Source: an uncultured virus (IMG/VR IMGVR_UViG_3300030102_003916) (taxonomy: Duplodnaviria; Heunggongvirae; Uroviricota; Caudoviricetes; Kyanoviridae). Taken from it: a DNA stretch of 20,000 nt. Shown in pieces: positions 208 through 18,468 of this stretch; positions within the stretch are counted from its first letter, which is position 1; each line of letters starts with the position of its first letter. The stretch spans positions 55,656 to 75,655 of IMG/VR virus record IMGVR_UViG_3300030102_003916; one strand, given 5' to 3'. The notes beneath the pieces are model-generated. The model did not search any database, had not been told where the DNA came from, and worked only from the letters and a program-made list of their open reading frames with translations. The position numbers were made by a program, and so were the translations under genes.

Positions 208-1656
208 TCACACCTCCAAAGAAACGTACACGTTTCTCCCTTCCTTAACCATGACCGACAGTTTGTTCTCGATGAGTTTGCTTAGTCTCCTTTCGGCGGT
301 CTTGACGCTTACAGCATTGAGCGCGGCATATCTAGTCTGTAACTCGGTCTTTCTCACGACCTCCTTCTTGGTGCGATCGTGGACTTGTCTCTTACATCCT
401 GCAAACGCCTGTTTCCATGCTCTGACATCAGCCTGTCTTTCCCTAGATGCCTTGTAGTCTCGCTTCTGCTCCAACCATATGATTAGATTGTGGAGATTGT
501 CATAGATTATCTCTGACGCCATGGAGATGTGTTCAGCAGTAATCACATTGGTTCCCATGGTAGCGGCAATCATGTTGCTGAATATGATAGTGTAATTCTC
601 GACGTTTGGCAAAAAGGATATTGCAGTCTCTCTCACATTGCCATCTGATACCGTCTTGACAAGATCGTAGTAGTCATCAACCGCACTTAACAGAGCGGCG
701 TGGTAGTTAGGCCCTATTGAGAATAGCATATGGCTGTGATTCACAGCAACCTCCTCTCTCTGCTCCTCGGACATTGAATCCCATTGGTCTTGGTCTATTC
801 CTGCTACGGTGAACAGCCTGTCTCTGACATCATCTCTCATGCCGATAATCCAATTGGATATTTCCTCATACGACCAGACCTGTTCGGGAACTGGAACATA
901 GACACCAGACATTCGATGCTCGCTAGTGGTCTGCCGTGTCTCCAGATTGACATCGTTCTGGTACAAGAATACTCTTTGGAAGAACCCCTTCTCAAGGACG
1001 TGGTGCATGATGTCCTTTGGTGGGAAGGTAGTAGCCCATAGGGAGATTCCAGATGGCGTGTATATCGACGCACCCTTCAAGTGATTGACAAGCACATTGG
1101 TTTCGCTACCGATGGGAGCCATGGCCTGTTGCAAGAATAGAATCTTCTGACTGAAATACGATTTGGAATCATCAAGGAGTATGCTACCCTCATCGAACAG
1201 CAGAGTCTTGTATCCATTCAGAAGACCGGGGACCACTTCAAAATCAACCCCTCCCACTCTCTTTCCATCCTCATCCACCTTTGGTGTCTCGATTACAGAA
1301 CCAATCAATTTGGAGTCTGACCCCGCACTAAACTTCTCGCTCTCTATTCCGCACAACTTCAATATCTTGGCCGTGAATTCGTATGCTATCGACTTCCCCG
1401 ATCTTGAGGCCTGTATCCAGAAGACATGAAGTCGGGAGTCGATGTAAGCACCGTGTATTGGTATCCTCACATATGGAGCGAGCATCTGTCCAAGGATGTA
1501 AAAGTAAGAGAGCATCCCTGCATAATGGTTGAAGAAAGATAGAGTGTCGAACCTCTCGACGTACTGCCTGAGTTTGTTACTGCCCTCATAGGGAGAGTTT
1601 ACCACGCTGTAATCATTCCACTCTCTTCTTGTCGAAGCCAACCCTCTCTCTATCAT
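208..1656 (-). CDS. MCM-like AAA+ ATPase/helicase with C-terminal winged helix, lacking the MCM N-terminal domain
   Basis: LHVFWIQASRSGKS (Walker A), SAGSDSKLIGSV (like MCM SSAAGLTAAV), VVPGLL..TLLFDEG (like LEAGAL..IDEF, Walker B), FFQRV (Arg finger), C-terminal SVKTAERRLSKLIE..VKEGRNVYV (wHTH). Confidence 0.75.
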   Translation of the reverse strand: MIERGLASTRREWNDYSVVNSPYEGSNKLRQYVERFDTLSFFNHYAGMLSYFYILGQMLAPYVRIPIHGAYIDSRLHVFWIQASRSGKSIAYEFTAKILKLCGIESEKFSAGSDSKLIGSVIETPKVDEDGKRVGGVDFEVVPGLLNGYKTLLFDEGSILLDDSKSYFSQKILFLQQAMAPIGSETNVLVNHLKGASIYTPSGISLWATTFPPKDIMHHVLEKGFFQRVFLYQNDVNLETRQTTSEHRMSGVYVPVPEQVWSYEEISNWIIGMRDDVRDRLFTVAGIDQDQWDSMSEEQREEVAVNHSHMLFSIGPNYHAALLSAVDDYYDLVKTVSDGNVRETAISFLPNVENYTIIFSNMIAATMGTNVITAEHISMASEIIYDNLHNLIIWLEQKRDYKASRERQADVRAWKQAFAGCKRQVHDRTKKEVVRKTELQTRYAALNAVSVKTAERRLSKLIENKLSVMVKEGRNVYVSLEV

Positions 1657-1657
1657 T

Positions 1658-2368
1658 TCAAGCCCTCTTCATCTTCACTTTCTCATCGGCAACCGGCTCC
1701 TCGCTGTTGAGACAGAGCAGGATTCGGTTCGCGCGGATTTTGCCAACACCCTCCGCCGCTTGTAATTCCTTCGGAGAACATGATGTGATTTCTGAGATTG
1801 AGCCGAAGGTAGCAAGGAGTCGCTTGGCTATTGCCTCGCTACATCCTGCGGCTCTGAGGATGTCTATCCTCCTGTCCTCTGATGCCGTCTTACGAAGCAG
1901 ACGGTACGTCGTGGGTGCGCTGAGTGAGCCATGCTTCTCAAACCGCTTACAGATGAACCGAGCGGCTGATGATCTGTCGGGCATGATTAGGATACTGGCA
2001 TCGTAGTCATTGTGGAATCTCGCTATCGACCCATAGAACGAGCCGAACACCTTGGGGTAACTCGTCTTCCGACCACCCCTCCTCGCCTTCGTTATGTATT
2101 GGTCTAACGACCCCCACACCACTAAGGCAAATTGGTTGTAGTTATCATCGAGATTCTGCAACTGCCTCTCCAAGTGACCTGAATACAGACTGCTCATGTA
2201 ATCGGATATGCTCTTTGCCTCGATGCCCACACTCGCAAATGCGTAGTCAGTAATCATGTTCTGGTTGATTACATAGGAGAGTCCCTTCTTATCGCAATAC
2301 TTCTTGACGAGATCCTCAAGGCCTGAGCGTTCACGATTGTCAATATAGAGAACCTTGGTCACGGCCAA
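1658..2368 (-). CDS. ERCC4/XPF (Hef/Mus81-type) structure-specific endonuclease with HhH2 domain
   Basis: IDNRE, TDY...IEAKSISDY.SS..SGHL..Q (ERKxxxD motif variant), C-terminal HhH motifs AGCSEAIAKRLL..FGS and LQAAEGVGKIRA. Confidence 0.92.
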   Translation of the reverse strand: MAVTKVLYIDNRERSGLEDLVKKYCDKKGLSYVINQNMITDYAFASVGIEAKSISDYMSSLYSGHLERQLQNLDDNYNQFALVVWGSLDQYITKARRGGRKTSYPKVFGSFYGSIARFHNDYDASILIMPDRSSAARFICKRFEKHGSLSAPTTYRLLRKTASEDRRIDILRAAGCSEAIAKRLLATFGSISEITSCSPKELQAAEGVGKIRANRILLCLNSEEPVADEKVKMKRA

Positions 2369-2631: not shown

Positions 2632-3726
2632 CTATTCAACTCCCTTACCATCGAACATGGGGCATTTGCCAAGGCAAAGTCCTTCGCTATATATCCTCGC
2701 ACAGGAGGGCGTTAGGTAATGCTTGCTTGCGCCATGAACGAGCATCTGCTGAGTAATCTTTGGGCTGTAATCTGCCCACTCCAAACCTGCTATCACTTCA
2801 TGAGTCCATTGGACTACCTCTGCATTGCTAACCTTGCTCTCATGTGGTGGTCTAGCAAAGTCCCTCTTGTAGTCCATGAGGTACATCATGAGGTACGATC
2901 GTGGTTTGTGTGGTGGATTACTACCCTTGGTACAACAGGCGGCGTCAAGGCATGGGAGGATAGGAACCCCATTTAGGTTCCTTGCTGATACCCCAATTTC
3001 CGCCGCGTCGAACTTTTGAAACAATCCTGTCAGTCCTGTCATGTTTGGGTCATGACTGACAATCTCGATTTCCAAGCCATTCTTGCCGTATGCCTTCATG
3101 CCACCTGATTGCGTTTCTGCCTTGTCGCTGATTGTTGTCCAACCATCTTGCAAATCCTTGGTGGAGACTGGTATAGACCACTTCTTTCTTTTGAAATTGT
3201 ATGAATTTGGGATTCTGATATGCCTATCGGGTCTGAATGATACGACAGGATCGATTGTGACCAAATCCATGTTCTTAATCCACTTGTTGATGATGACCCT
3301 CCCAGAGAATAACAGGTTAGCCAACTCGTCCGGTGGCAACGTGTGTATCTCTGATAGCATGACCCAGATGTGGAATCCACCGCCGGAGTACCATGTCGCA
3401 TGACGTATGTCTTCCTTCTTGAGATGCTCCGTTAGTGTCAGGGTGTCACGGGTGCATCTCTCTCCCCACTCGTCCTCGGTCCCCTCCGGCAAAACCTCCT
3501 CTGCCCTGCCTTTGTCAAGGTCGATGACGAAGTGTGGCACGATTGCCGTTGAGTATTCGCATCGGTTGCCCTTGGTCTTCAAATGACGGAAACCATAGAC
3601 TGTCGTGGTCAGGTTGTCCCTCCCATTCATGCTGTCTATGTACCTCTGTAACTCGACCATGTTGCGAACGACCTTCCTCGTCCTCATGTTTACTTCGCGT
3701 GGGAAGTCCGCAAACAAGTGCGACAT
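2632..3726 (-). CDS. Archaeo-eukaryotic DNA primase, PriS catalytic domain fused to PriL C-terminal Fe-S domain
   Basis: AEP motifs FVIDLD, YSGGGFHIW, RHIRIPNSYN; PriL-CTD cysteines ILPCL...NPPH..R...TPSCARIYSEGLCLGKC. Start moved to the ATG at 3726 (MSHLFADFPRE), 2 nt after the upstream stop. Confidence 0.9.
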   Translation of the reverse strand: MSHLFADFPREVNMRTRKVVRNMVELQRYIDSMNGRDNLTTTVYGFRHLKTKGNRCEYSTAIVPHFVIDLDKGRAEEVLPEGTEDEWGERCTRDTLTLTEHLKKEDIRHATWYSGGGFHIWVMLSEIHTLPPDELANLLFSGRVIINKWIKNMDLVTIDPVVSFRPDRHIRIPNSYNFKRKKWSIPVSTKDLQDGWTTISDKAETQSGGMKAYGKNGLEIEIVSHDPNMTGLTGLFQKFDAAEIGVSARNLNGVPILPCLDAACCTKGSNPPHKPRSYLMMYLMDYKRDFARPPHESKVSNAEVVQWTHEVIAGLEWADYSPKITQQMLVHGASKHYLTPSCARIYSEGLCLGKCPMFDGKGVE

Positions 3727-3728
3727 AC

Positions 3729-4706
3729 CTAGCCCTCTTGAGGGTAGGGCCATAGAATCTTCTCATAGCGAGGACAATATCCCTTGAGATCGCACCAAGG
3801 TTCACAAATGACCTCCTGCGCTCTCCAGAAATCAATCAATGCAAAGGCCCTACCATCTAAATCGCCCTTGTATTGGTTATACGTCCGCACCAGTAATCTC
3901 AATTTATCCATCATGGAGTCCATGTCCTTCTGCCGGACATCCTCCACGCCACGCCACACCGCATCAGGCTCCTCGCCCTCCTTAGACGCATAGCCACCCG
4001 TGTGGTCCCACCCCCATCGCTCGCACTCCAGACCACCCAGAACCTCATGGTCGCATTCTTTCAAGAGCATGACATAGTATGCCATCTCCTCTCTCATGTT
4101 ACTCCACTTTGAGGGCTTGTGGTCTTTCCACATACCCGTCTTCAACTCATGAACATGAGGTATCCCCTCGGCATCAGCGAACAACCTGTCCACGATTCCT
4201 GTAAGATGAACCAACTGTCCCTCTATGGTGACTACCGCGTCCAGACTTACCTCATTGCCAATCGGAAGGAAGAAGTGAGGGTCAGCACAATTCATGAATC
4301 GCTCTGCTTCAAGTTTCATGTATTTCGTCAAGTGCTGTTCCTCATCCAATTCATAGGGACCGCGCTTCGGATCGCCCTCTCCAACGAACTCCATGAAATA
4401 CTTCTCGACGTTCTCCAACCCGTATGACTTCATGGATGCGGCGTAAGATACGCTTACGTCTTGATAGAAGCGTTCGATTGAGTCATGAACATTGGACCCG
4501 CGAATCATAGCCTCAGTCTCCTCAGACTTGATACCAAGGACTCTCTTGATGAATGACTGCTGTTGGCAGAATCCGAAATCACCCAATGATGACTTCGACA
4601 CTCTCAATATCACATTGTCATTCATGCCCGGATGCCATTGGTATGAAGAGAAGAGTCCCGGCCTTCCCGGTACGGGGTATCTCTTTGGTGGACTAAATAC
4701 CGACAC
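3729..4706 (-). CDS. Cas4/RecB-like PD-(D/E)XK exonuclease (PDDEXK_1) with predicted 4Fe-4S cluster
   Basis: SKSSL..F.FC, RGSNVH..IE, GIVDRL, ELKTG, C-terminal C..WCD....CP. Confidence 0.9.
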   Translation of the reverse strand: MSVFSPPKRYPVPGRPGLFSSYQWHPGMNDNVILRVSKSSLGDFGFCQQQSFIKRVLGIKSEETEAMIRGSNVHDSIERFYQDVSVSYAASMKSYGLENVEKYFMEFVGEGDPKRGPYELDEEQHLTKYMKLEAERFMNCADPHFFLPIGNEVSLDAVVTIEGQLVHLTGIVDRLFADAEGIPHVHELKTGMWKDHKPSKWSNMREEMAYYVMLLKECDHEVLGGLECERWGWDHTGGYASKEGEEPDAVWRGVEDVRQKDMDSMMDKLRLLVRTYNQYKGDLDGRAFALIDFWRAQEVICEPWCDLKGYCPRYEKILWPYPQEG

Positions 4707-4733: not shown

Positions 4734-6029
4734 CTATTCGTCAATTACATCATCAGGATGATCTAGCGACCCATCTCTGAGTCCCTTCCAACCGTACCAC
4801 TCTCCTCCTTCGGGGTCACGTCGGAAGACCTTGACCCTCCCAGAGGACTTTAGGCTCGTTCGGTTATGCGTGATGATGGCATGGGACTCTGACACTCCGG
4901 TCAATTCGCCCTTCTCGTCCCTCTCCTCAGTCACCTCAAACTTGGCGACCTGTTGTAGCCAACCTTCTGTGTCCTTGAGCCAATGCGCTGTCTCAGCACC
5001 TATGATTTCGTTGCCACCGCTATCGTATGCGGTCTTCCCGTGCGTGATGATGTAGCAATGCACACCTAGTCTGCACAGTTCCTGCAACGCAGTCAGAGCA
5101 GAATTGTATCGGCTCTTTCTGATGTTCCAATTGAATCGACCTATCTTGGTGGTAGCGTCCTTTCCTGCTACGGCTATGCCGTCTGGCCCTAACTTGAGGT
5201 CATCCACCTTCATGATAGTCTCACAGATGTGTAGCCAATGATCTGCACCATCGAACACCACGGTCTTGAGATATGGCTTCGGCATCTTCCCATGCTCGTT
5301 GTAGTATGCCAATTGACCCTTAGCCATCTCGACAGCCGCTCTGAGATAGTCCATGGTGTTCTGGAACGTGGCAGGGTAGTCGTATGGGACTCGACTGGCC
5401 GCAGTCGATGACATGACCCATGGATTGAGGACGAGGATGTTTGTGTCGCCCTCGTGGTGAGCAGACTTGGTAGTCTCTCCACCCAGATCGAAATCGTAGT
5501 GGTGCATCTCCGCACCGTTCTTCTTCTCCTCTTCCGTGAGGCTATCCAGAACCGCGCCCGTCTTACCCGACTTCGGTGGTCCCCAGATTCCCATCAGGAC
5601 GTAGTACGTCTTCTCGCTGATGAGATTCTTGGCCCTAGCCGCCTCTATCTGCTCCCATGCGGGGTTCGCTGATTTGGTCAGCCATTGTGCTGATGGTGTC
5701 TTCTTCTTCCCTATTCTTGGGTCACGCACCTCGATGCCCTTTTCCTTAGCCATTTCAATTTCCTCTTCGTATGTCTCCTTCGTCACTTTCTTCTCCTCCT
5801 TTACTGGAAACTCTGCCGGGGTTCCACCCGCCCCACTATACCCATCTCCACCTGCGGCTTCGATGTCCCTCAATTCCTGCTCCTCGATTGATAGGTTAGG
5901 ATCGTACTCTCCCTCTTGAACGAATATCTGCTTTGCTAGAGGCTCAGGCTTACCACCTTCTGCCGGAGGATTAACCTCCTTGGCCTCAGTAGTGTCCTTC
6001 TTCTCCCAATTGTCCATGAATCCGGTCAT
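4734..6029 (-). CDS. AAA_24 / Sak4-like P-loop ATPase (recombination/annealing) with long acidic N-terminal extension
   Basis: Walker A GIWGPPKSGKT, DFDLGG, Walker B TVVFDG, YIITH; position between SSB-like gene and exonuclease is typical of phage recombination modules. Confidence 0.8.
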   Translation of the reverse strand: MTGFMDNWEKKDTTEAKEVNPPAEGGKPEPLAKQIFVQEGEYDPNLSIEEQELRDIEAAGGDGYSGAGGTPAEFPVKEEKKVTKETYEEEIEMAKEKGIEVRDPRIGKKKTPSAQWLTKSANPAWEQIEAARAKNLISEKTYYVLMGIWGPPKSGKTGAVLDSLTEEEKKNGAEMHHYDFDLGGETTKSAHHEGDTNILVLNPWVMSSTAASRVPYDYPATFQNTMDYLRAAVEMAKGQLAYYNEHGKMPKPYLKTVVFDGADHWLHICETIMKVDDLKLGPDGIAVAGKDATTKIGRFNWNIRKSRYNSALTALQELCRLGVHCYIITHGKTAYDSGGNEIIGAETAHWLKDTEGWLQQVAKFEVTEERDEKGELTGVSESHAIITHNRTSLKSSGRVKVFRRDPEGGEWYGWKGLRDGSLDHPDDVIDE

Positions 6030-6311: not shown

Positions 6312-7616
6312 TTAATCACTCCTGAATCCATCTAGGCCGCTAAGATCGTCGTCGTCTGCATCCTGACCCCATAGTATTCTCCTTGGGACAGGCCATACAT
6401 TGAGAGCGTCTAGGTTGAGGCGTGTCTCACCCATGTCCGACTCCCATGTGCTTGAGCGCACGGTGACGAATACCTGTGTCCCTGCTGTGAAGTCTCTCCA
6501 TGTGTCATTGTCCAATCCTTGGAAGGCATGATGGTCATTGACTAGGTATCTGCTGACATTGAGCCACAGGTTGTTCTCGCCATCCCTTCTGAGAGCCGCG
6601 CTACTCAGAGTCATGGAGTGTCTGTGTCCTCCGTCGGTGTACCTGTTAGGCTCTCCATCGTGGTCTATGTAGTCCACCACGCCCCTCATGCAAAAGAGAG
6701 GACCATATGATCGGCCAGTCTTCTCTGAATAGGTGGTGTTGGCCTCGTAGTAGTCCATGACGCTTGAGAGGTCGGTGACGTATCCCATGAATTGGGACAG
6801 GTACTGATCGGGAGTGAACATAGCCTCCGCAGTCGCTCTCTGTGCATCGGGAACCCAATCTAGGCTGTAAGAGGGGTCGATGTTGTTTGCCTTGAGTATG
6901 GACTCCTCTGGGTTGAAGTATGACTCTCCCACCTCTGCCTTGAAACTGATTGGCTTGTTCATCTGCAAATGCACGTCAGCCGCATCGAAGGAGCATTCCA
7001 ATCTCATGGGGGGCAACGGCCCCTCAACTAGGAATTTGTCTGCTGTGTTACCGACGAACAGCCACTCGCGCTTAAGGGAAGATGCTCTCTTTGGTCCCTT
7101 TGGCCCTAGTAGTGCGACGTAGTATGACTTGTTCGGTACTGCTATCGCCCAAGGGGGAAGGCTACCCTCATCGCCCTGTTCGGTGTGTATTACCTGATCT
7201 GCCGCATTGGACACCTTCCATGAACCATCGGTGTAGTGAACCCTGCCAACGCCAACCGTGTTGTCGTTGTTGTATGGTCTGATACCATGACTGAGTACGT
7301 TATTCAAGTCAATCTCCGCTTGCTCTGTGGCTAAGTCTCTCTGCTTGGACATCAAGTCTCGGAGAGAAACATGGCCGACAATCATGCCGACCCAATCTTC
7401 GCCCTTGCCGGACGAGGCCCCTCTGGCCCTAATCTTGTTCACTCTGTATGACTCTAAGAAGAACTCAAGATCCTCATCGTCAAGGTTGGCTAACTTACCC
7501 TTAGCGTCTTTCCACGCATCTGGGTAGTGGCCTTCCACAAAGCCCGTGAAGTCCTTTTCGACTTCTGCTTCCGTCTTTCCTGTTCGCTGTGCTATTTCAC
7601 TAAATATATCTGACAT
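6312..7616 (-). CDS. probable RPA/SSB-like single-stranded DNA-binding protein (OB folds)
   Basis: N-terminal helical segment like archaeal RPA (EIAQRTGKTEAEVEKDF), beta-rich C-terminal OB-like region (FTAGTQVFVTV...LNLDALNVW), acidic tail DADDDDL; context upstream of the AAA_24 ATPase and exonuclease. Function is inferred. Confidence 0.6.
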   Translation of the reverse strand: MSDIFSEIAQRTGKTEAEVEKDFTGFVEGHYPDAWKDAKGKLANLDDEDLEFFLESYRVNKIRARGASSGKGEDWVGMIVGHVSLRDLMSKQRDLATEQAEIDLNNVLSHGIRPYNNDNTVGVGRVHYTDGSWKVSNAADQVIHTEQGDEGSLPPWAIAVPNKSYYVALLGPKGPKRASSLKREWLFVGNTADKFLVEGPLPPMRLECSFDAADVHLQMNKPISFKAEVGESYFNPEESILKANNIDPSYSLDWVPDAQRATAEAMFTPDQYLSQFMGYVTDLSSVMDYYEANTTYSEKTGRSYGPLFCMRGVVDYIDHDGEPNRYTDGGHRHSMTLSSAALRRDGENNLWLNVSRYLVNDHHAFQGLDNDTWRDFTAGTQVFVTVRSSTWESDMGETRLNLDALNVWPVPRRILWGQDADDDDLSGLDGFRSD

Positions 7617-7651: not shown

Positions 7652-8029
7652 CTACCCTATAATCCCGCCGACGCTTTCAAGCAATTCCAATGCGTTCTCA
7701 ACGTCTGCATGAGTTTCTGGTTGAGACAGGACACCATTGTACCTTCTGACCATCTCCAGACCCTCTGTCGTGTTCGACAAGTCCTCTAGGCCGTTAATGA
7801 TGTTCAGTATCTTGGTAATCTCCTCGGTGTCCGAATACACGTTCTTGACTTCTATGCCTTTGTCGTTCAAGGCTCGTGACACTCCTGCTTTGATTACGGG
7901 TATCCTCAATTCTGGTCTGATAATGTAACCACATTTGCGCTCTGTGGTTTGAACGCACTTGATACCCCCTCTTATCGACGATGCGAGGATGATTACATCA
8001 CGATCATTCTGATTCAGTATCTTCGACAT
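7652..8029 (-). CDS. degenerate LAGLIDADG-endonuclease-like protein
   Basis: Start MSKILNQ at 8029 (SD GGAGGAG). KCGYIIRPELRI resembles K.GY.V.P.F.I, followed by ..EEITKILNII.. and a terminal ETHADVENALELL helix as in single-motif LAGLIDADG proteins; no LAGLIDADG acidic motif. Confidence 0.45.
   Translation of the reverse strand: MSKILNQNDRDVIILASSIRGGIKCVQTTERKCGYIIRPELRIPVIKAGVSRALNDKGIEVKNVYSDTEEITKILNIINGLEDLSNTTEGLEMVRRYNGVLSQPETHADVENALELLESVGGIIG
7658..7672 (-). promoter_or_regulatory. putative viral promoter: GTCGGCGGGA + TTATA
   Basis: 13 bp identical to 18320-18332; TATA-like element 42-46 nt upstream of the SSB-like gene ATG, with SD-like GAGGGA in the leader. Confidence 0.6.
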
Positions 8030-9431
8030 ATCCAATCTCCTCCACACCCATGCACTCTGAAATCCCTGCATCGGTCTTGATGCCCGTTATCGTACCCATG
8101 ACATACGCGCCTATGTCTCCCCATCCTGATGACAATATATCCACCGTGACGAACAAAGGCGTGTCAATCTTGATTGCCTCGCCATCAATCATCTTGTATG
8201 ACGCACAGTAATTGTTGAAGTCAAAGTCACTCTCCATCTCACAGACAGGATAGTAATCGAAACCATCTCTCACTCCAAGTTTCCATAACTTCCTCGGCGC
8301 ACCTCCTGTCGTCGAATCAACGACTCGACCAGATAGCACACGGAGAATACGATCCTTGGATATTGGATTCAACAATGCGATTTCCTCAATGGTGTTCTCA
8401 TAAGTTAGCACCCCCCTCGCATTGCGAAGTATGAAGGGAAGGCCAGACTCAATGTGAACCGTCGCATGATAAGGTGCTTCCAACATCGTCATTGATTTCA
8501 TGCCCCACGCAGGTATGTCATTGAATCTGCGTCTGCGCTTTGTGTACGTTGCCTTGGGGTCATCTGGGTTCAGCCAATCAATCAATAGCATGGGGTTCTC
8601 CCTATGCTCTGCATAATCCACCAAATACACTCCTTCTGGGAGATTCAAAGATGAGGCCCATCGCTCCATCCATCCATCATCATCCGGTAACTCCTCCCCT
8701 GATGCACTAAATCCGACTGTGCCAGAGGACGAATGATGCAAGGTGGCCCACACCCCCTCGACTGTCTCAGCATAGCATCTAGTGAATGCCACGGCGTCCG
8801 TGCTTTCAACCAGATTCGGTGATGGGATTAACAATGGCATATTCGGAATCGGACGTATCTTGTTGTAATTGAAAGACCCCATGTTCAAGTCTCTCACGGT
8901 GTTTCTCAAACCTAGCAGATTCACAGATGTCCTCACATGATGGAATGGTTGGTCGTATGCCATGCCCAACGCCCTAACCACATCTCTTCGCCTGACTGGT
9001 GCGGCCCTTATGCTCAAACGCATGAATAAAGGGTGCAAGTCTCTCTTGTTTATGCGATCGAAGAGAGGACGTATCAACCATGCTCTAACCTCATTGTCGT
9101 CCGCCTCCAGAATCTTGTGCATCCTATCGACAATCGCTTTGGCGTGTCCCTCCGTGACGACAGTCTCAGACAATGATGTGAGCAGATCGATTGGGTCGGG
9201 ATTGGATTCGACCTCTTCTGGATACGCATCAGTCAATAGAAAATATATCTCTCTGAAATCCTCATCGCTAAGGCGATTGCCCACTCCATTCTTAGGATAG
9301 AAGAATGAAACCACCGACCATGGGTCTGTTGTCTCGGCACGGATATTGTTCGCAACCATTTCTGCTCTGTTTCTCAGTCGGTACAGCGTCATGACTCTCC
9401 ATGTCTCTGCCAGAGATCGGTACTTCAACAA
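8004..9431 (-). CDS. ATP-dependent DNA ligase homologue (DBD + NTase + OB domains), apparently catalytically inactive
   Basis: Collinear with archaeal ligases: YAETVEGVWATLH (motif I, normally EYKYDGERVQIH), GFSASGE (FSR), LLIDWL (FDIL), TYTKRRR, FILRNARG (EGLMLK), LRVLSGR, KLGVRDGFDYYPVC (OB). TTG start with SD GGAGGAGTGA. Confidence 0.75.
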   Translation of the reverse strand: MLKYRSLAETWRVMTLYRLRNRAEMVANNIRAETTDPWSVVSFFYPKNGVGNRLSDEDFREIYFLLTDAYPEEVESNPDPIDLLTSLSETVVTEGHAKAIVDRMHKILEADDNEVRAWLIRPLFDRINKRDLHPLFMRLSIRAAPVRRRDVVRALGMAYDQPFHHVRTSVNLLGLRNTVRDLNMGSFNYNKIRPIPNMPLLIPSPNLVESTDAVAFTRCYAETVEGVWATLHHSSSGTVGFSASGEELPDDDGWMERWASSLNLPEGVYLVDYAEHRENPMLLIDWLNPDDPKATYTKRRRRFNDIPAWGMKSMTMLEAPYHATVHIESGLPFILRNARGVLTYENTIEEIALLNPISKDRILRVLSGRVVDSTTGGAPRKLWKLGVRDGFDYYPVCEMESDFDFNNYCASYKMIDGEAIKIDTPLFVTVDILSSGWGDIGAYVMGTITGIKTDAGISECMGVEEIGYVEDTESE

Positions 9432-9434
9432 CTG

Positions 9435-9839
9435 TCACTCCTCCTCGTCCCTCATCCACCATGCAACGCAGTCTTGGTACAACTCCTCATCGCCTATGAC
9501 ATCTATGATTATGTCTCTAGCCCAATCTTGAATGAACCACCTGTCCTCGATCCTGCCAAGACTGTCCATGGCCTTCACGCCCCTCCCCAATGTCATCTGC
9601 CCTATGTATTTGAGATAGGAGACTGATACCTTCTTGCCCGTGCAATTCGCTACGATGTATATGCAATCGAAGCAATGAGTAATCGGACTGCGATTTACCT
9701 TGCTTCTAGTCTTCGACCAGATTTCATAGGAATACTCCGATAGTGACTCATAATCCTCGTCGTCGATAATCTCCCAAATCATCTGAATGAGAGACTTATG
9801 CTCAGACAGGAAGTCGTCGATGGATTCCCATTTACTCAT
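9435..9839 (-). CDS. hypothetical protein with TFIIB/TFB cyclin-repeat-like segment
   Basis: NRSPITHCFDCIYIVANCTGKKVS resembles TFB repeat GRSP..(A)AAC(I/L)YIA....G...T; likely start MSKWE at 9839. Confidence 0.5.
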   Translation of the reverse strand: MSKWESIDDFLSEHKSLIQMIWEIIDDEDYESLSEYSYEIWSKTRSKVNRSPITHCFDCIYIVANCTGKKVSVSYLKYIGQMTLGRGVKAMDSLGRIEDRWFIQDWARDIIIDVIGDEELYQDCVAWWMRDEEE

Positions 9840-10125
9840 CAACATCCCTCAAGGAGTCCTTTTCCACGACAATCCATACGTCATCATCCTCGACCAAATC
9901 CGAGAGCGCATCTCTCAATGCCCTAGCCTCAGTCCTGTTCAGAAAGAAACCGGCCTTGGTATAACCAGTCCAACCTGTTTTCGATGGCACGATACGACGC
10001 ATTCTCACGTTGAGCATACGTCCATCAAAGGCATTCGATGTTATGACGTGCAACTCCTCACCGGGATGACAAGTCGTTTCAATCTCATCATGAATGACGT
10101 TCTGGTAGTCATGCTCTCTGGTCAT
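9832..10125 (-). CDS. PC4-family ssDNA-binding/transcription coactivator-like protein
   Basis: EELHV......GRMLNVR.........YTKAGFFL...EA..L.DAL matches the PC4 pattern (..DIR....PTKKGISL..E...L). Confidence 0.7.
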   Translation of the reverse strand: MTREHDYQNVIHDEIETTCHPGEELHVITSNAFDGRMLNVRMRRIVPSKTGWTGYTKAGFFLNRTEARALRDALSDLVEDDDVWIVVEKDSLRDVDE

Positions 10126-13740: not shown

Positions 13741-14754
13741 TCACTCGTCCCCCATCCAATTGTAGCGGCAGGAGCGACCGCTCGCTCCGTTGGTGACAAT
13801 CCAACCTGCCTTGAGTAGTGCGTCGAAGCGTGGCCTCCAGTCGTCATCGTTGAGGCCCATCTCCGCCATGCCCTTCCGTACTGCACCGATAGTCAGGTCG
13901 CCTAGAGACAGGACGCTACTAAGTGCGTCCGTAATCTGCTCCCTCTGCTTGACTATGGCGGAGAATGCGGGGGCGTCACCCTCGACCCCCACACCCTCCT
14001 CGGATGTGATGGACTGAACAGTCTGTCCCTCTCCTCCCATGACTACTATGCTAGGAGGCATCTCCTCGGTCGGGTGAACAACCGGGTCCGAGGTGGGTGA
14101 CTCATGGGTTGGAGTAGTAATGATGTCGGATCTTGTGACCGGACTAGCGACTGGTGTCTCTAGTCCCTCGACGGTGACGCTGACGTTGGTCTGAATCGTA
14201 CCCTTGGAACGGGACTTGACTCTGCGTGTGAGTGACTCGACCATGGCGTCTATGCGCTCCTTGTCTTGGATGTCTGGTAACTGTGCCTTGTCTATGGACG
14301 TGCGACCGGACTCGTTAGTGACCATGGCCTCGTCCTGAACCTCGTTGAGTAAATCCACTACTTCCTGAACCCTGTCCATGTTACCGCCGAATGCGTGACG
14401 CAGACTAGCAATCAAGAAGGAGTAATTGTATTTGTGGTCAAGAGCCATGGTCGTCGTGACATCGCTCTTGCCCACGGGTATCACGACTGATGGCTTGTCG
14501 TCCTCTGCTTGGCGGACCTTGAGTGTGACACCACCCACAGTCACCTCTAAGTCCGTCTGCCCGACAGTCCTCAATGGGTTCATGCCCTTACGCTCCTCTT
14601 GTGAGAAGTAAACGCGCTCACCCGTGACTTCCATCTGCTCATGGATGAGTCTCTTCACCTCTGCACCTATCGGTTCCAGAGCGATTAACTCAACGGGTAT
14701 ATTGCCCGCACCAAATTGTTCTTTCAATTGCTTTCCTATCTTTGCTTTGCTCAT
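13741..14754 (-). CDS. hypothetical protein with Thr/Pro-rich linker and C-terminal winged-helix domain
   Basis: C-terminus GDLTIGAVRKGM...DDWRPRFDALLKAGWIVTNGASGRSCRY fits wHTH; SD AGGAG. Confidence 0.7.
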   Translation of the reverse strand: MSKAKIGKQLKEQFGAGNIPVELIALEPIGAEVKRLIHEQMEVTGERVYFSQEERKGMNPLRTVGQTDLEVTVGGVTLKVRQAEDDKPSVVIPVGKSDVTTTMALDHKYNYSFLIASLRHAFGGNMDRVQEVVDLLNEVQDEAMVTNESGRTSIDKAQLPDIQDKERIDAMVESLTRRVKSRSKGTIQTNVSVTVEGLETPVASPVTRSDIITTPTHESPTSDPVVHPTEEMPPSIVVMGGEGQTVQSITSEEGVGVEGDAPAFSAIVKQREQITDALSSVLSLGDLTIGAVRKGMAEMGLNDDDWRPRFDALLKAGWIVTNGASGRSCRYNWMGDE

Positions 14755-14812
14755 TCTATTGTCTCCTAGCCCTCATCGGGGAATACTTCATGAGTGGGGG
14801 TAGTATTTGAAC

Positions 14813-14971
14813 CTACTTCCGCTTGTGATATGCGACCATACCAGATCGCTTCTCCTTCATGTTCAACAGGTAGCACTTGCCACAGTACCATCTCTTGCGA
14901 GTCACTTGCGAGACTGATGATTTGGTATTCCTAGTATTGATGTCCTTTCTGCACCTGTAACACACGGGCAT
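14813..14971 (-). CDS. Zn-finger microprotein (52 aa)
   Basis: MPVCYRCRKDINTRNTKSSVSQVTRKRWYCGKCYLLNMKEKRSGMVAYHKRK. Confidence 0.65.
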   Translation of the reverse strand: MPVCYRCRKDINTRNTKSSVSQVTRKRWYCGKCYLLNMKEKRSGMVAYHKRK

Positions 14972-14993
14972 GATTAGCAAAGGGGCGTTTCGC

Positions 14994-15113
14994 TTATGAT
15001 TGCTCCTCTGGTATCGTCCATGGCCTCTGGTTCAGACAAACCTCGCAGTATATCTCTCTCTTGAAGAATACGTTCCTCATCCTGCATCTCTGGCATAGGG
15101 ACAATGTAGCCAT
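14994..15113 (-). CDS. Zn-finger microprotein (39 aa)
   Basis: MATLSLCQRCRMRNVFFKREIYCEVCLNQRPWTIPEEQS; SD GGAGGT, starts right after the upstream stop. Confidence 0.65.
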   Translation of the reverse strand: MATLSLCQRCRMRNVFFKREIYCEVCLNQRPWTIPEEQS

Positions 15114-15272
15114 TCACTCAACCTCCACTCCACACTTCGGGCATTGATCTCCTTTGTTCCAATCTGCTTGAATTAAAATGCCGTGACTGTTCTTGCACTT
15201 GTTAGGACAAGGCCTTTTCTTGTTTCCAGATGGCAGGGTAATATTGAACATCCCTCTAAATGGGTCTTCCAT
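15114..15272 (-). CDS. Zn-finger microprotein (52 aa)
   Basis: MEDPFRGMFNITLPSGNKKRPCPNKCKNSHGILIQADWNKGDQCPKCGVEVE; abuts both neighbours. Confidence 0.7.
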   Translation of the reverse strand: MEDPFRGMFNITLPSGNKKRPCPNKCKNSHGILIQADWNKGDQCPKCGVEVE

Positions 15273-15530
15273 TCACTCGTCCCCCTTTGGCTCGTAATCG
15301 ACGTGGTTCTCAGGTAGCCTGTGCTTTCTCCTGTCGCTCATGTTCTCAAGATACTTACAGATGTTCTCTGCTCCCTTCCTGAATCTCTTCTCCGCAACCT
15401 TGTCTCCCCTTGGTATCATCTGGGACATGAGTCCGCTCAGGTTAATCTCGTATCCTATGTGTTGGAGGATTTCGTACTCGACGTGCGTGATGCTTACTGC
15501 CCTGCCCTTGCTGATTTGTCCATCGCTCAT
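15273..15530 (-). CDS. hypothetical protein (85 aa)
   Basis: ORF track; ATGA overlap with the upstream micro-ORF. Confidence 0.75.
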   Translation of the reverse strand: MSDGQISKGRAVSITHVEYEILQHIGYEINLSGLMSQMIPRGDKVAEKRFRKGAENICKYLENMSDRRKHRLPENHVDYEPKGDE

Positions 15531-15655
15531 CTCTTACACCTGCAAGCATCGTTCATCAAGGCTCCCCATGGTCCGGTCGATCCACCGCACTTTCGACAGA
15601 TGCCCAAAAGCACCTCACTCTTTTTTGCTTCATTTTTCTTCTTCTTTTCACTCAT
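15527..15655 (-). CDS. Lys-rich Cys microprotein (42 aa)
   Basis: MSEKKKKNEAKKSEVLLGICRKCGGSTGPWGALMNDACRCKR; first gene after the AT-rich intergenic region. Confidence 0.6.
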   Translation of the reverse strand: MSEKKKKNEAKKSEVLLGICRKCGGSTGPWGALMNDACRCKR

Positions 15656-15876
15656 TTTTTCACTTCCATAAACCGGGCCAATTTTGCCTCGGTAAAATTA
15701 ACGAGTCGGTATTTGACCATAAAGGCTTCTGCCCAAAAACGGGGTACTGCGAGCCATTTTTGTTAAAAAATGCCTATTTTTGGATATACAACGTGCATTT
15801 ATGATCGAAATAGAATCGAAACTGCACGAGCGAGAATCGAACCTATTTTGTGAGCGAAAGCACTTGGGGGAAGAAC
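15656..15876. other. AT-rich non-coding region between divergent genes, with A/T tracts and short repeats
   Basis: Longest non-coding stretch in the window; multiple A/T runs, ATCGAA x3, CC(A/T)ATTTT-like motif x4. Confidence 0.6.
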
Positions 15877-16227
15877 ATGAAACGAATACGATATGATTGT
15901 GTGAAATGTGGTAAGACAACCTATGACCGCCGCATCTGTGGTTGGTGTAGGTTGGACATGAGTCTTGAGGAGACATTGAAACTACTGAATGACAATCCAG
16001 TAACTCCCTCTGGCAAACCAATCCGACATTCCGTTCATAGTATGCAAAAGAAAAGGGAGGTGAACAAAGTGAGAAATTGTGACGTATGCGAGGCAAGAAA
16101 GGCCCGCCGACAGAAGGTCATGGATGTCCTATTTTCAGCCGTGAAGGCCGGATTTGGAGCCGCCTTTCAGTTGGGTGTGTCAGTCGGTGCTATCTATTAT
16201 CTGATTCAAGAGGGGGTGATCCTCTGA
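15877..16227 (+). CDS. Zn-finger protein with C-terminal hydrophobic (TM-like) segment; only credible plus-strand gene
   Basis: Start MKRIRYDCVKC (GGGGAAG upstream); CxxC...CxxC, CDVC; C-terminal GFGAAFQLGVSVGAIYYLI. Confidence 0.6.
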   Translation: MKRIRYDCVKCGKTTYDRRICGWCRLDMSLEETLKLLNDNPVTPSGKPIRHSVHSMQKKREVNKVRNCDVCEARKARRQKVMDVLFSAVKAGFGAAFQLGVSVGAIYYLIQEGVIL

Positions 16228-16452
16228 CTGAGGACGAGGAGGAATAACACCAGAATCTGTGATGTGGGGGTGCGCTTGCATTCGCCATCCGTTGGCCTCT
16301 CTCCTGAGTCTAGCGCATCTTCCACATCGGACAACAGTATCCTTGGATTGCGTCCTGATATTGTGCTTCTTGCAATCCCTGCATTGCCTGTAATTCTCAG
16401 GCTTGCGAGCGGGGCCTCTCTTCTTGTGTCTGCGAGCGTATGGCTTCATCAT
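16180..16452 (-). CDS. basic Zn-ribbon protein
   Basis: CRDC...CGRC, Arg/Lys-rich N-terminus; ATGA overlap with the upstream gene. Confidence 0.65.
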   Translation of the reverse strand: MMKPYARRHKKRGPARKPENYRQCRDCKKHNIRTQSKDTVVRCGRCARLRREANGWRMQAHPHITDSGVIPPRPQSEDHPLLNQIIDSTD

Positions 16453-16709
16453 GACCAGTCCTTGTAATCCAACGTCAAGTCCCAGACCTGTATGTTGTAC
16501 CTCTGGTTCTCGATGGGTGATTTGGTCTGGACGAAACCGATCGCTCTGAACCGGGGGTCTTTCGATAGAACATTGGTGGTTTGCTGTAATGTGGTTCCAC
16601 CATAGGACGATTTGTTGATGTGGTCGAAAATCTGCTGTGTCGTTTGCGGACCCTTCTTCTCAAGGTGCTTCACAATCTTGAGCCGTAGTCGCTTCGTCTT
16701 TCCAGTCAT
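16449..16709 (-). CDS. DUF3860-like winged-helix protein
   Basis: KT.RLR.KI...L.....TT.QI.DHIN.....GTT.QQ..NVLSKD, as recalled from the marine DUF3860 family; likely start MTGKTK at 16709. Confidence 0.7.
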   Translation of the reverse strand: MTGKTKRLRLKIVKHLEKKGPQTTQQIFDHINKSSYGGTTLQQTTNVLSKDPRFRAIGFVQTKSPIENQRYNIQVWDLTLDYKDWS

Positions 16710-16726
16710 GATTCTCTTGAAGGGAC

Positions 16727-18292
16727 TCAACCCATCATCCCCGGCATTGGTGGCATACCCCCGTCACCTGCCTTCATACTAATCACGTCGTCTATTCTTA
16801 GAATCATGATGGCGGCTTCGGTAGCGGAGCCAAGTGCTGTCCACACTACCTTGTGTGGCTCTATGACCTTCGCATCTCTCATGTTCACCACGTCCCCCTC
16901 TGTGTTTATCCCGTAGTCCGCGCTCTCTGCCTTGCGTAGCGCGAGGACTGCATCGACCGGATCGATTCCGGCGTTCTCTGCCAGAGTCTTCGGTATCGAC
17001 TCCAGAGCGTCGCTGAAAGCGGAGATTGCCATTCCCTTTCTGTCTCCCATGGTAGCGGCCTTCAACCTCAGATGTCGGGCTAGGTGGGCATACACCCCTC
17101 CACCCCCTGCAACCAGTTTCTTGGCCCTAGCACTCAGGAAAACCACACCCATAGCGTCGTCCCATGCTCTCTCTATCTCATCTAGGGAGTGGCCTGTGCT
17201 ACCACGAAGCACGGCGGTGACGCTCGTCGTCCTATCAGATTTCAGGACCGTGCAATGGTAGTCTCCGAACTTGACCTCCTCAATATTAGAGGCCAGTCCC
17301 ATGTCCTCCGGGTCTATGTCTTCCAAGCCATTGACGAACCTCGCGCCCGTTGCCTTCTTGAGTGCCTCCATCCTGCTTTTCTTCACGCGCTTTAGGCAGA
17401 AGATTCCGGCCTTCGCCAGATAGTGCATTGCGAGGTCGTCCACTTCCTTCTGGCAGAACACCGCATTAGCACCTGTTGATATTATCTCCGCGCACATCGC
17501 CTTGAGCATCTCCTCCTCTTGAGCCAAGAAGTCCTTGACCTGATCCGGGTTGTTGATGTTGAGCGTCGTGTCGAACTTCGACTCCTTGATGCCTATCTCC
17601 TCTGTGACCAATAGGACATGAGCGTCACTCAGGCTCGCGGGCATCTCGCTGTGCGCTCGCTCCTTCTCTATGAGGACACCATGAATCAATGCGGACTCAT
17701 CATACGTCCCACCAGAGAATGAGGCTACCATGATGTCATCTAACGTACCCTCATCACCTATTGTCTGGACGGCTTCGACGCACATTGCTGAGATTACCTC
17801 TGCCGCTCCTTCTGCACTCTTCCCGGTCAGGCTAGTCATGGCGACGCTAGTCAAGTCCTCCTCTGTCGCCTCCCATCCTAATGTGGCTAATTCGTCCTTG
17901 GCTAGGTCATGAGCCTCCTTGAAGCCTCTGCATATGATTGTCTGGTGTATGCTATCGTCTAGCAGGTCTTCTGCACGTTCCAATATAGCCCCGACCAGAA
18001 CGGCGGCTGATGTCGTTCCATCGTGGGCCTCCTGTTCTTGGGTTTCGGATACCTCTATGATGAGTTTCGCGGCAGGGTGNNNNNNNNNNGCTCCGTCGTT
18101 GGTGATGACCACATCTCCTGATGGGTCCACTAGCATCTTGTCGGCTCCTTCTGGACCGAGCGTGGATCTTACGGTTTCAGCGACGGCCTTAGCCGCCGCG
18201 ATGTTGTTGCTCTGGGCGGGCTTCCCCCTGATTCGCTCCGTCCCCTCCTTCATTATGAATATCGGTTGGTTGCCTTGTGGCACGTTGTTCAT
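16727..18292 (-). CDS. ths: group II chaperonin (thermosome subunit), virus-encoded
   Basis: Start [17 protein letters not shown] (ATG 18292); [64 protein letters not shown] tail. Contains a 10-N gap at 18080-18089. Confidence 0.97.
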
Positions 18293-18316
18293 AACGTCGG
18301 TGCTGACAGGATTGAC

Positions 18317-18332
18317 ATTTAATCCCGCCGAC
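18317..18332 (-). promoter_or_regulatory. putative viral promoter GTCGGCGGGA + TTAAAT for the thermosome gene
   Basis: TATA-like TTAAAT 25-30 nt upstream of ATG 18292 (leaderless spacing); 13 bp identical to 7660-7672. Confidence 0.65.
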
Positions 18333-18333
18333 C

Positions 18334-18468
18334 TTATCTCAGGATTTCCTTGACTTTGACATAGAGATAGAGCCACAGCAAAGCGACTCCTCCCCACGCG
18401 CTCATGCTCTTGATTAAGTCCCAATTCGCCTCTGCTTGCTCTGGACTGGTCGCCATTACCTCAAGCAT
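18334..18468 (-). CDS. small single-TM membrane protein (44 aa)
   Basis: [44 protein letters not shown]; only the 3' end of the 170-aa track ORF is credible. Confidence 0.55.

Follow-up and report, generated by a model that had tools for sequence, protein, structure and literature searches.

Several accounts of magroviruses attribute to these viruses a family B DNA polymerase (PolB), a clamp, a clamp loader and one or two DNA ligases (PMC5434244, PMC12999244, PMC10160649, PMC11706807), and the ligases of their replicative module are described as similar in sequence to cellular ligases (Philosof et al., 2017, PMC5434244). In poxviruses, the middle domain of vaccinia A20 has been described as “an inactive DNA ligase” made up of a catalytic subdomain and an OB fold (PMC11142717). 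Here we analyze a ligase-like gene within a window of 20,000 nucleotides (nt) from an uncultured virus (IMG/VR record IMGVR_UViG_3300030102_003916, positions 55,656 to 75,655), the window being the final 20 kb of a 75,655-bp record with a CheckV completeness estimate of 71%. An initial annotation, made from the letters alone, had reported an uninterrupted open reading frame (ORF) of 475 amino acids (aa), and this holds; its strand, unstated there, is minus (Table 1). On the evidence of its sequence and of a structural model, the product is very probably a pseudo-ligase, derived from a three-domain ATP-dependent ligase and able neither to self-adenylylate nor to seal nicks. The whole explanation that we favor, with a probability of roughly 0.55, is that this pseudo-ligase is kept as a DNA-binding or scaffold subunit in viral replication or recombination.

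Predicted structure

Against Pfam, the 475-aa protein matched no ligase family at E ≤ 0.1 (a match to DED at E 0.029 is noise) and did not reach the gathering scores of PF01068, PF04675 and PF04679. PHROGs returned no match for it, nor did a tblastn search of 50,697 phage records, and PDB sequences searched with phmmer and with the family profile, A1, gave noise only and no ligase. A1 has 22 rows, one for the window protein and the others for 21 of 31 homologues, near-duplicates and fragments having been left out.

The AlphaFold2 model built from A1 has a mean predicted local distance difference test (pLDDT) score of 85.9 and a predicted template modeling (pTM) score of 0.65, and is made up of a helical domain (residues 1-193), a mixed α/β domain (about 194-358) and a β-barrel (about 359-456). 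At E ≤ 1e-3, Foldseek found 107 PDB matches, led by 6wbo at 7.2e-18, and each of the best 49 of these 107 is an ATP-dependent DNA ligase or a complex that includes such a ligase. The ligases of Thermococcus, Pyrococcus and Archaeoglobus rank first (7e-18 to 1e-15), and human Lig1, Lig3 and Lig4 come next. VIA-align, which is independent of Foldseek and compared 48,161 chains, aligned model residues 2-456 with the S. solfataricus ligase (2hiv_A; Z 16.6, 439 residues aligned) and residues 1-472 with the A. fulgidus ligase (3gde_A; Z 15.6, 459 residues aligned). Taken by domain, residues 1-193 match the DNA-binding domain (DBD) of Lig1 (8b8t_A; Z 13.9, root-mean-square deviation (rmsd) 2.9 over 176 residues) and residues 192-359 match the nucleotidyltransferase (NTase) domain of Lig3 (10ye_L; Z 15.0, rmsd 2.8 over 165 residues). 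DNA ligases were also returned from the viral structures in BFVD, including that of Halogranum tailed virus 1 (HGTV-1) at 2.4e-14, and a language-model feature search of the ESM Atlas found three-domain ligase clusters at 0.90-0.93. The order DBD, NTase and OB fold was recovered by Foldseek and by VIA-align, the latter over the full length and domain by domain, and the predicted fold is clearly that of a complete three-domain ATP-dependent DNA ligase. Collinearity with archaeal ligases from the DBD to the OB domain, as the initial annotation had proposed, is therefore upheld by structure, although it is invisible to sequence searches. Annotation by fold would mislabel the pseudo-ligase as an active ligase.

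The DBD is basic, with a family median isoelectric point (pI) of 8.2 (9.25 in the window protein) and nine Arg columns conserved at 90% or more. In the NTase domain, which is some 40 aa shorter than its canonical counterparts, motifs III and IIIa are not separated by the usual long loop. The domain is acidic (family median net charge -9); Lys and Arg account for 9% of its residues compared with 16% in canonical ligases. The OB domain has a net charge of -4, and the C-terminal tail, GVEE[LI]G[YW], is conserved and acidic.

Catalytic motifs

The lysine of motif I is the adenylylated nucleophile that ligases need. As a reference for this and the other catalytic positions, an alignment (A3) was made of 20 canonical ligases that PF01068 had identified in host-phylum genomes (L069 and 19 of the 30 loci L079-L108), with loci bearing long N-terminal extensions left out. 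Invariant in A3 are K250, D252, G253, R255 and H259 in motif I, S269 and R270 in motif Ia, E299 in motif III, F339 and D340 in motif IIIa, E398 and K403 in motif IV, K420 and K422 in motif V, and R536, R539, R544 and K547 in motif VI, as well as R357 and R358.

In the window protein, the remnant of motif I is ETVEGVW, residues 222-228, at the very position given in the initial annotation (8748-8768). A weak profile-profile alignment (E 0.016) sets T223, E225, G226, W228 and H232 against the Lys, Asp, Gly, Arg and His of KYDGxRxQxH. A second run (E 0.27) gives the same mapping with the Lys opposite a one-residue gap, and a segment-wise alignment across motifs I and Ia (E 0.0014) gives it again, with S242-A243 opposite Ser-Arg. 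Another segment (E 9e-5) places I284-D285 on the Phe-Asp of motif IIIa and R299-R300 on the Arg pair. These segments were picked by collinearity, so their alignments are supportive only. When A1 was compared with ligase profiles by local hhalign with alternatives, one short DBD match was obtained, and global hhalign, domain-wise or over the whole length, produced trivial end alignments only. A segment alignment across motifs IV-V gave nothing usable, and that of motif VI was weak (E 0.22) with variable aligned columns.

Residue counts were taken over the 45 distinct sequences that the viral loci provide. The motif I lysine column contains Lys in 0/45, the occupants being Ile (16), Ser (9), Thr (7), Asn (4), Glu (2), His (2), Arg (2), Val (1), Pro (1) and Tyr (1). 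G226 and H232 are each present in 45/45 and E222 and E225 each in 41/45. The reading of ETVEGVW as a degenerate motif I without its lysine, made at the outset, is thus confirmed, with T223 or a gap at the critical position. The Arg column of motif Ia is Ala, Ser or Val in all 22 rows of A1, which removes the Ser-Arg pair, and the aromatic position of motif IIIa is occupied by Val (22), Ile (15), Leu (5) or Cys (3) beside D285, which is found in 45/45. In the motif III region, placed by strand order, D/E272 is present in 45/45, Y273 and A274 in 44/45 each and E275 in 25/45. R388 is the only Lys or Arg column of the OB domain conserved at 90% or more.

K312 apart, no Lys column in the whole protein reaches 80% conservation; K312 itself is present in 45/45 of these sequences and in 20/20 of the widened alignment. 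The lysines of motifs I, IV and V therefore cannot all be present, and those of motifs IV (EGxxxK) and V (KxK) are missing by this count whatever the alignment register. In this way the sequences themselves, with no reliance on register, support the loss of motifs IV and V and make that of motif VI probable. The initial annotation had gone further and held every catalytic motif to be lost. This is right for the motif I lysine and for the unconserved lysines of motifs IV and V, but motif I keeps its Gly and has an acidic residue instead of Asp, the motif III strand keeps an acidic residue, and the Asp of motif IIIa and the Arg pair are also retained.

Conservation and selection

A phmmer search of 1.84 billion representatives matched 31 clusters, and 31 homologues of 35-98% identity, none carrying a Pfam domain, were found among 5.8 billion proteins. 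One of the 31 clusters, P0060, was rejected by inspection, being a repeat protein and a false match. A widened profile searched against the 5.8 billion proteins recovered 35 proteins, with a gap in E value from 5e-93 to 0.01; no relatives that were more distant, or that had kept their catalytic residues, came from this search or from the phmmer search of the representatives. It is a small, closed family, represented at 58 viral loci and, among 185,579 species genomes, at a single locus.

Among 51 loci matched over nearly the full length, which span 26-98% identity, 50 have an intact ORF of 459-496 aa. The sole broken copy among them, L031:909-1793, is cut to 294 aa, whether in reality or through an assembly error, and was left out of later counts. 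The ratio of nonsynonymous to synonymous substitution rates (dN/dS), estimated by the Nei-Gojobori method from the 28 of 990 pairs with 0.05 < dS < 1.5, has a median of 0.048 (range 0.023-0.078), with values of 0.039 for the DBD, 0.045 for the NTase domain and 0.047 for the OB domain. The whole pseudo-ligase is under strong purifying selection, and because dN/dS is low and alike across the domains, the gene is taken to be functional and all three domains to matter. That the gene is maintained and not decaying had been suggested from the uninterrupted frame, and the intact loci and the uniform dN/dS agree with it. A gene recently inactivated and en route to loss would lack catalytic residues, as this one does, and might be truncated here and there, as in L031; an ORF intact in all but one locus, dN/dS of about 0.05 in all domains, many family-specific invariant residues and fixed synteny leave this alternative with next to no probability.

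Host and replication context

The viral record encodes a terminase, portal, prohead protease, SU10-type capsid protein and group II chaperonin, and the virus is therefore a tailed archaeal virus. The sole cellular locus of the pseudo-ligase family (L065, G021:C2) lies on a 106,262-bp contig of a Poseidoniales archaeon and encodes a protein 98% identical to that of the window. The contig and the viral record are collinear, and their nucleotide sequences are about 96% identical in the replication module and 72-93% identical in the structural one. Since a contig from a Poseidoniales assembly is collinear with the viral one, sequence comparison supports a host link to Poseidoniales (Marine Group II). 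The contig runs about 21 kb past the end of the window, where it carries a D12 adenine methyltransferase, a GP88-like protein and an HMGL-like enzyme.

The host order was sampled through 13 incomplete Poseidoniales genomes (G021-G033, with loci L066-L068). The ATP-dependent ligase domain, PF01068, was not found in these 13, whereas the adenylation domain of the NAD+-dependent, bacterial-type ligase is present in 13/13. Elsewhere, again in samples of incomplete genomes, the ATP-dependent ligase occurs in 12/31 genomes of the class and 42/61 of the phylum. Strict and relaxed regular expressions for a PCNA-interacting peptide (PIP) box found none in the pseudo-ligase. A dominant-negative competitor of a host ATP-dependent ligase was rejected as a candidate role, there being no such ligase in the sampled genomes of the host order, and the wider suggestion of the initial annotation, a dominant-negative inhibitor of host ligase/PCNA complexes, is weakened by the same distribution of ligases and by the missing PIP box.

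PolB and PCNA models gave no match in five records (G000 and G001-G004, including four near-complete relatives of at least 91% completeness and 97-108 kb). Because neither a family B polymerase nor a PCNA domain was detected, the lineage is, on the sequences at hand, distinct from the PolB-defined magrovirus groups. Of the magrovirus context that had been implied for this gene, the Poseidoniales host link stands, but PolB, PCNA and a canonical ligase were not detected in these viruses.

With 0/5 records encoding PolB or PCNA, the virus would need host replication proteins, and the pseudo-ligase could be a host-directed device whose ligase surface docks onto the host replisome, whether through PCNA or other components, and, as a hijacker or decoy, either draws host polymerase, clamp or NAD+ ligase to viral DNA or blocks host replication, with DNA binding secondary. 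Archaeal ligases are PCNA partners, as the titles of entries 7rpx and 7qnz among the matches listed indicate, and the conserved acidic tail would suit such docking. We consider this fairly unlikely, since no PIP-box-like motif was found and the sampled host order offers no ATP-dependent ligase to compete with.

A second, active ligase elsewhere in the genome had been raised as something to look for. PF01068 has no match in the window's own contig, none above cut-off in 20 related records (four of them at least 91% complete) and none in the Poseidoniales assembly that carries the pseudo-ligase, and a Pfam search of the 34 extra ORFs of the 106,262-bp contig returned no ligase and no polymerase. 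Sub-threshold PF01068 matches occur in 3 of the 20 related records, in ORFs of 590, 1,154 and 1,161 aa, the 590-aa frame being cut by the contig end. No canonical ligase is thus detected by PF01068, but a divergent ligase-fold domain is present in a 1,107-aa structural-module protein encoded outside the window, the equivalent in this contig of those three ORFs. Residues 661-898 of this protein, found in 13/21 records and in 4/4 of those at least 90% complete, are modeled as an NTase(+OB) ligase fold (pLDDT 74.3; Foldseek 6.6e-8; VIA-align Z 13.1, rmsd 3.2 over 158 residues) and align with true ligases from motif IIIa to motif V at E 3.6e-4. Its motif I region reads Q-[KTH]-[KM]-P-x-G-x-[RH], with Lys at the canonical position in 7/12 sequences and one residue earlier in 5/12; the motif IV lysine and the motif V lysines are unmatched in the alignment to true ligases. 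A ligase embedded in the structural module has been reported for magroviruses, and the 1,107-aa protein recalls that arrangement.

The pseudo-ligase could in principle be a regulatory or structural partner of this second domain, the two together forming a ligase or end-handling complex. Both proteins occur in every near-complete relative, and the second domain combines a ligase fold with a Lys at or beside the motif I position in 12/12. The two genes nevertheless belong to separate modules, with about 50 kb of the contig between them, and the canonical motif IV and V lysines are unmatched in the alignment of the partner as well, which makes such a pairing very unlikely. A literature search for a heterodimeric DNA ligase in phage found none.

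A proposed role without catalysis

If the pseudo-ligase does not seal nicks, what is it kept for? In the explanation that we favor, its ancestor would be an ATP-dependent ligase of the archaeal/viral type, with DBD, NTase and OB domains, that lost the motif I lysine and most of the residues for AMP binding and chemistry, and with them self-adenylylation and nick sealing. Strong purifying selection holds all three domains in place within a single closed lineage of tailed Poseidoniales viruses. The grip of a ligase on duplex DNA would be retained, through a basic, Arg-rich DBD and two further domains that could close round the helix. The protein would then serve as a non-catalytic subunit that marks or holds nicks, ends or junctions, or that bridges other replication or recombination proteins. 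This DNA-gripping mode of work as a binding or scaffold subunit is offered tentatively, its chances being somewhat short of even. DNA binding is plausible from the pI and conserved Arg columns of the DBD; ligase DBDs touch DNA mostly via main-chain atoms (PMC7470946). A more specific version, in which a ring-closing clamp or adaptor sits on nicks, primer ends or junctions and tethers the host NAD+ ligase or polymerase to viral DNA, is unlikely. If true, it would be the archaeal-virus counterpart of poxvirus A20/A22, reached independently and using a complete ligase body.

Several observations weigh against a purely non-catalytic, DNA-embracing protein. The acidic NTase and OB domains disfavor full encirclement of DNA. 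Residues E222, E225, G226, H232, D/E272, D285, R299/R300 and K312, near the former active site, are invariant or nearly so and could reflect a kept ligand pocket or some chemistry, and the invariance of K312 in particular fits poorly with a purely structural role. One of the 22 A1 members, P0021, reads KVEGTW and has Lys at position 223, a column that otherwise varies freely. The residue mapping of motifs III, IV, V and VI depends on secondary-structure order and weak segments (E 0.0014 to 0.6).

These residues raise the alternative that the protein is still an enzyme, with K312 as a relocated nucleophile or with the old pocket turned to another DNA-end reaction. K312 is without a counterpart among the canonical invariant residues, E222, E225, H232, D/E272 and D285 remain near the old pocket, and the NTase domain is as strongly constrained as the others (dN/dS 0.045). 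A viral sealing activity would be useful where no canonical ATP-dependent ligase was found in viruses or hosts, and other families are known to include pseudoenzymes whose residues have migrated (PMC10211241). Yet conservation is lacking at the lysines of motifs IV and V, at the Arg of motif Ia, at the Phe that stacks on adenine and, in a weak alignment, at the basic residues of motif VI, and G226, H232, D285 and the Arg pair are invariant in active ligases too, so that their retention may be structural. Sealing can also be supplied by the NAD+ ligase found in 13/13 host-order genomes. We know of no member of the covalent nucleotidyltransferase superfamily that uses a lysine outside motif I, and an enzymatic role of this kind is judged quite unlikely.

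Gene neighborhood

The pseudo-ligase gene begins with a TTG codon at 9431. The stop codon of the upstream gene, at 9435-9437, lies 3 nt before it, and a GGAGGAG run resembling a Shine-Dalgarno sequence is located 7 nt ahead of the start, inside 9438-9446. This spacing suggests translational coupling of the two genes. The start is sound because the N-terminus is kept among the homologues aligned in A1.

Synteny was counted over 58 loci. The gene belongs to a fixed operon in which the listed neighbors are syntenic in 39-56 of the 58, in the order 167-aa, 97-aa and 136-aa proteins, pseudo-ligase, 139-aa and 434-aa proteins, P-loop ATPase, Cas4-like nuclease, 373-aa protein, ERCC4/XPF nuclease and 482-aa protein (Table 1). 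The small downstream gene probably starts at 8029, giving a product of 125 aa, because its conserved core begins near ORF residue 15-30. Its protein has the conserved motifs RGxIxC...CGYxIRPE and LNGxLxQPxxHxEV. The 434-aa neighbor is found in the same contig set as the pseudo-ligase; used as bait for related operons with a canonical ligase, it retrieved the same contig set only, and an Atlas search with it gave nothing useful. PDB profile searches with the 434-aa and 482-aa families returned no match. The 373-aa protein has motifs that we take to be archaeo-eukaryotic primase-like (acidic DxD, sGGGFH and RIPNS), spotted by eye; its sole database match is a PHROG of unknown function.

Table 1. 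Pseudo-ligase, its domains and motif remnants, and neighboring genes. Coordinates are those of the window unless stated otherwise; synteny is given as loci out of 58.
Feature	Coordinates	Strand	Remarks
Three-domain ligase-fold protein without catalytic lysine (probable pseudo-ligase)	8004..9431	-	475 aa, TTG start
DBD homologue, residues 1-193, helical	8853..9431	-	VIA-align match 8b8t_A
NTase (adenylation) domain homologue, residues 194-358	8358..8852	-	VIA-align match 10ye_L
OB-fold homologue and acidic C-terminal tail, residues 359-475	8007..8357	-	Full-length matches extend to model residues 456-472
ETVEGVW, putative motif I (KxDGxR) remnant	8748..8768	-	T223 at or beside the Lys position; E225 for Asp, G226 for Gly, W228 for Arg
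I284-D285, putative motif IIIa (F-D) remnant	8577..8582	-	Aromatic lost; Asp invariant, 45/45
R299-R300, kept Arg pair	8532..8537	-	Aligned to the invariant RR of canonical ligases
K312, sole conserved Lys	8496..8498	-	No counterpart among canonical invariant residues
GAGGAGGAG, Shine-Dalgarno-like	9438..9446	-	Within the end of the upstream gene
167-aa zinc-finger protein			Synteny 47/58
97-aa protein			Synteny 49/58
136-aa gene just upstream of the pseudo-ligase	9435..9845	-	Synteny 50/58
Small downstream gene, 139-aa ORF	7652..8071	-	Overlaps the pseudo-ligase 3' end; synteny 55/58
434-aa gene	6312..7616	-	Synteny 56/58
431-aa P-loop ATPase	4734..6029	-	Walker A by eye; weak Sak4-like PHROG match, E 0.035; synteny 55/58
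PD-(D/E)XK (Cas4-like) nuclease	3729..4706	-	Pfam; synteny 52/58
373-aa protein	2632..3753	-	Primase-like motifs by eye; synteny 45/58
ERCC4/XPF-type nuclease with helix-hairpin-helix motifs	1658..2368	-	Pfam; synteny 41/58
482-aa P-loop protein, possible helicase	208..1656	-	Synteny 39/58
1,107-aa protein P0063 (second ligase fold)	G000:C1:10363-13686 (= L001:10363-13686)	+	Outside the window, between the portal and prohead-protease genes

Further along the window, the group II chaperonin (thermosome; Cpn60_TCP1, E 1e-138) is encoded at 16727-18424 on the minus strand, with a short run of N inside the gene, and is present in 28/58 related loci. The stretch 14755-16726, between two minus-strand gene blocks, is gene-poor, with a lower G+C content (0.46) and short ORFs on both strands; a repeat search of 14,700-16,800 found one weak 17-nt pair only.

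Comparison with known systems

The closest structural relatives are Lig1-type ligases of archaea and eukaryotes (2hiv, 3gde, 2cfm, 6wbo and 1x9n), which have the same DBD-NTase-OB order and fold over the full length. They share with the pseudo-ligase the Gly of motif I and the following His, the Asp of motif IIIa, the Arg pair and several structural glycines. In contrast to them, the pseudo-ligase, at about 11-13% identity, has no Pfam match, no motif I Lys, no conserved basic residues in motifs IV and V and probably none in motif VI, and its NTase domain is shorter and acidic.

Among viral proteins, the HGTV-1 ligase (BFVD R4T9C5) is of similar size, likewise 475 aa, and comes from a tailed archaeal virus, and the nearest Atlas clusters to the pseudo-ligase are viral ligases. 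Like the HGTV-1 and magrovirus ligases, the pseudo-ligase is encoded in the replication module of tailed archaeal viruses. Set against the magrovirus ligases, which were compared by description only, it is without detectable similarity to cellular ligases, without the catalytic Lys and without a detected viral PolB. As an unannotated gene, it would be a signature of a Poseidoniales virus lineage that lacks PolB.

The fold of its central domain has been reused for binding elsewhere. The m3G-cap-binding domain of snurportin-1 is a lysine-less NTase fold (1xk5_A; Z 12.4, rmsd 3.4 over 152 residues), but it is a single domain that serves a eukaryotic import adaptor by binding an RNA cap and, unlike the pseudo-ligase, has neither a DBD nor an OB domain.

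Naturally inactive DNA ligases are rare, and the described case that we found is a two-domain module in a poxvirus processivity factor. In the literature covered, PMC7470946 and PMC7824862 included, with supplements and subscription journals outside its scope, there is no account of the pseudo-ligase family or of a natural three-domain inactive ligase. Here, abundant marine archaeal viruses would keep a complete ligase body without its chemistry under strong constraint, in hosts that have swapped the archaeal ATP-dependent ligase for the NAD+ enzyme. Such a family would amount to a natural experiment in the uses of the ligase scaffold other than sealing.

The poxvirus protein A20/A22 is the nearest precedent. 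It too is a viral DNA-replication protein containing an inactive ligase-fold module, with NTase and OB domains from which the catalytic residues are missing. A20/A22, however, has these two domains only and no ligase DBD, and its flanking domains bind uracil-DNA glycosylase and the polymerase. The monkeypox virus (MPXV) A22 structure (8wpf_B) matches the pseudo-ligase model at a VIA-align Z of 8.1, far below the values for real ligases, and because of this much weaker match the two inactivations are most likely independent. Compared with the known inactive ligase, the pseudo-ligase is new in keeping the whole ligase body, in belonging to an archaeal virus and in occurring in a lineage with no detected polymerase or clamp of its own.

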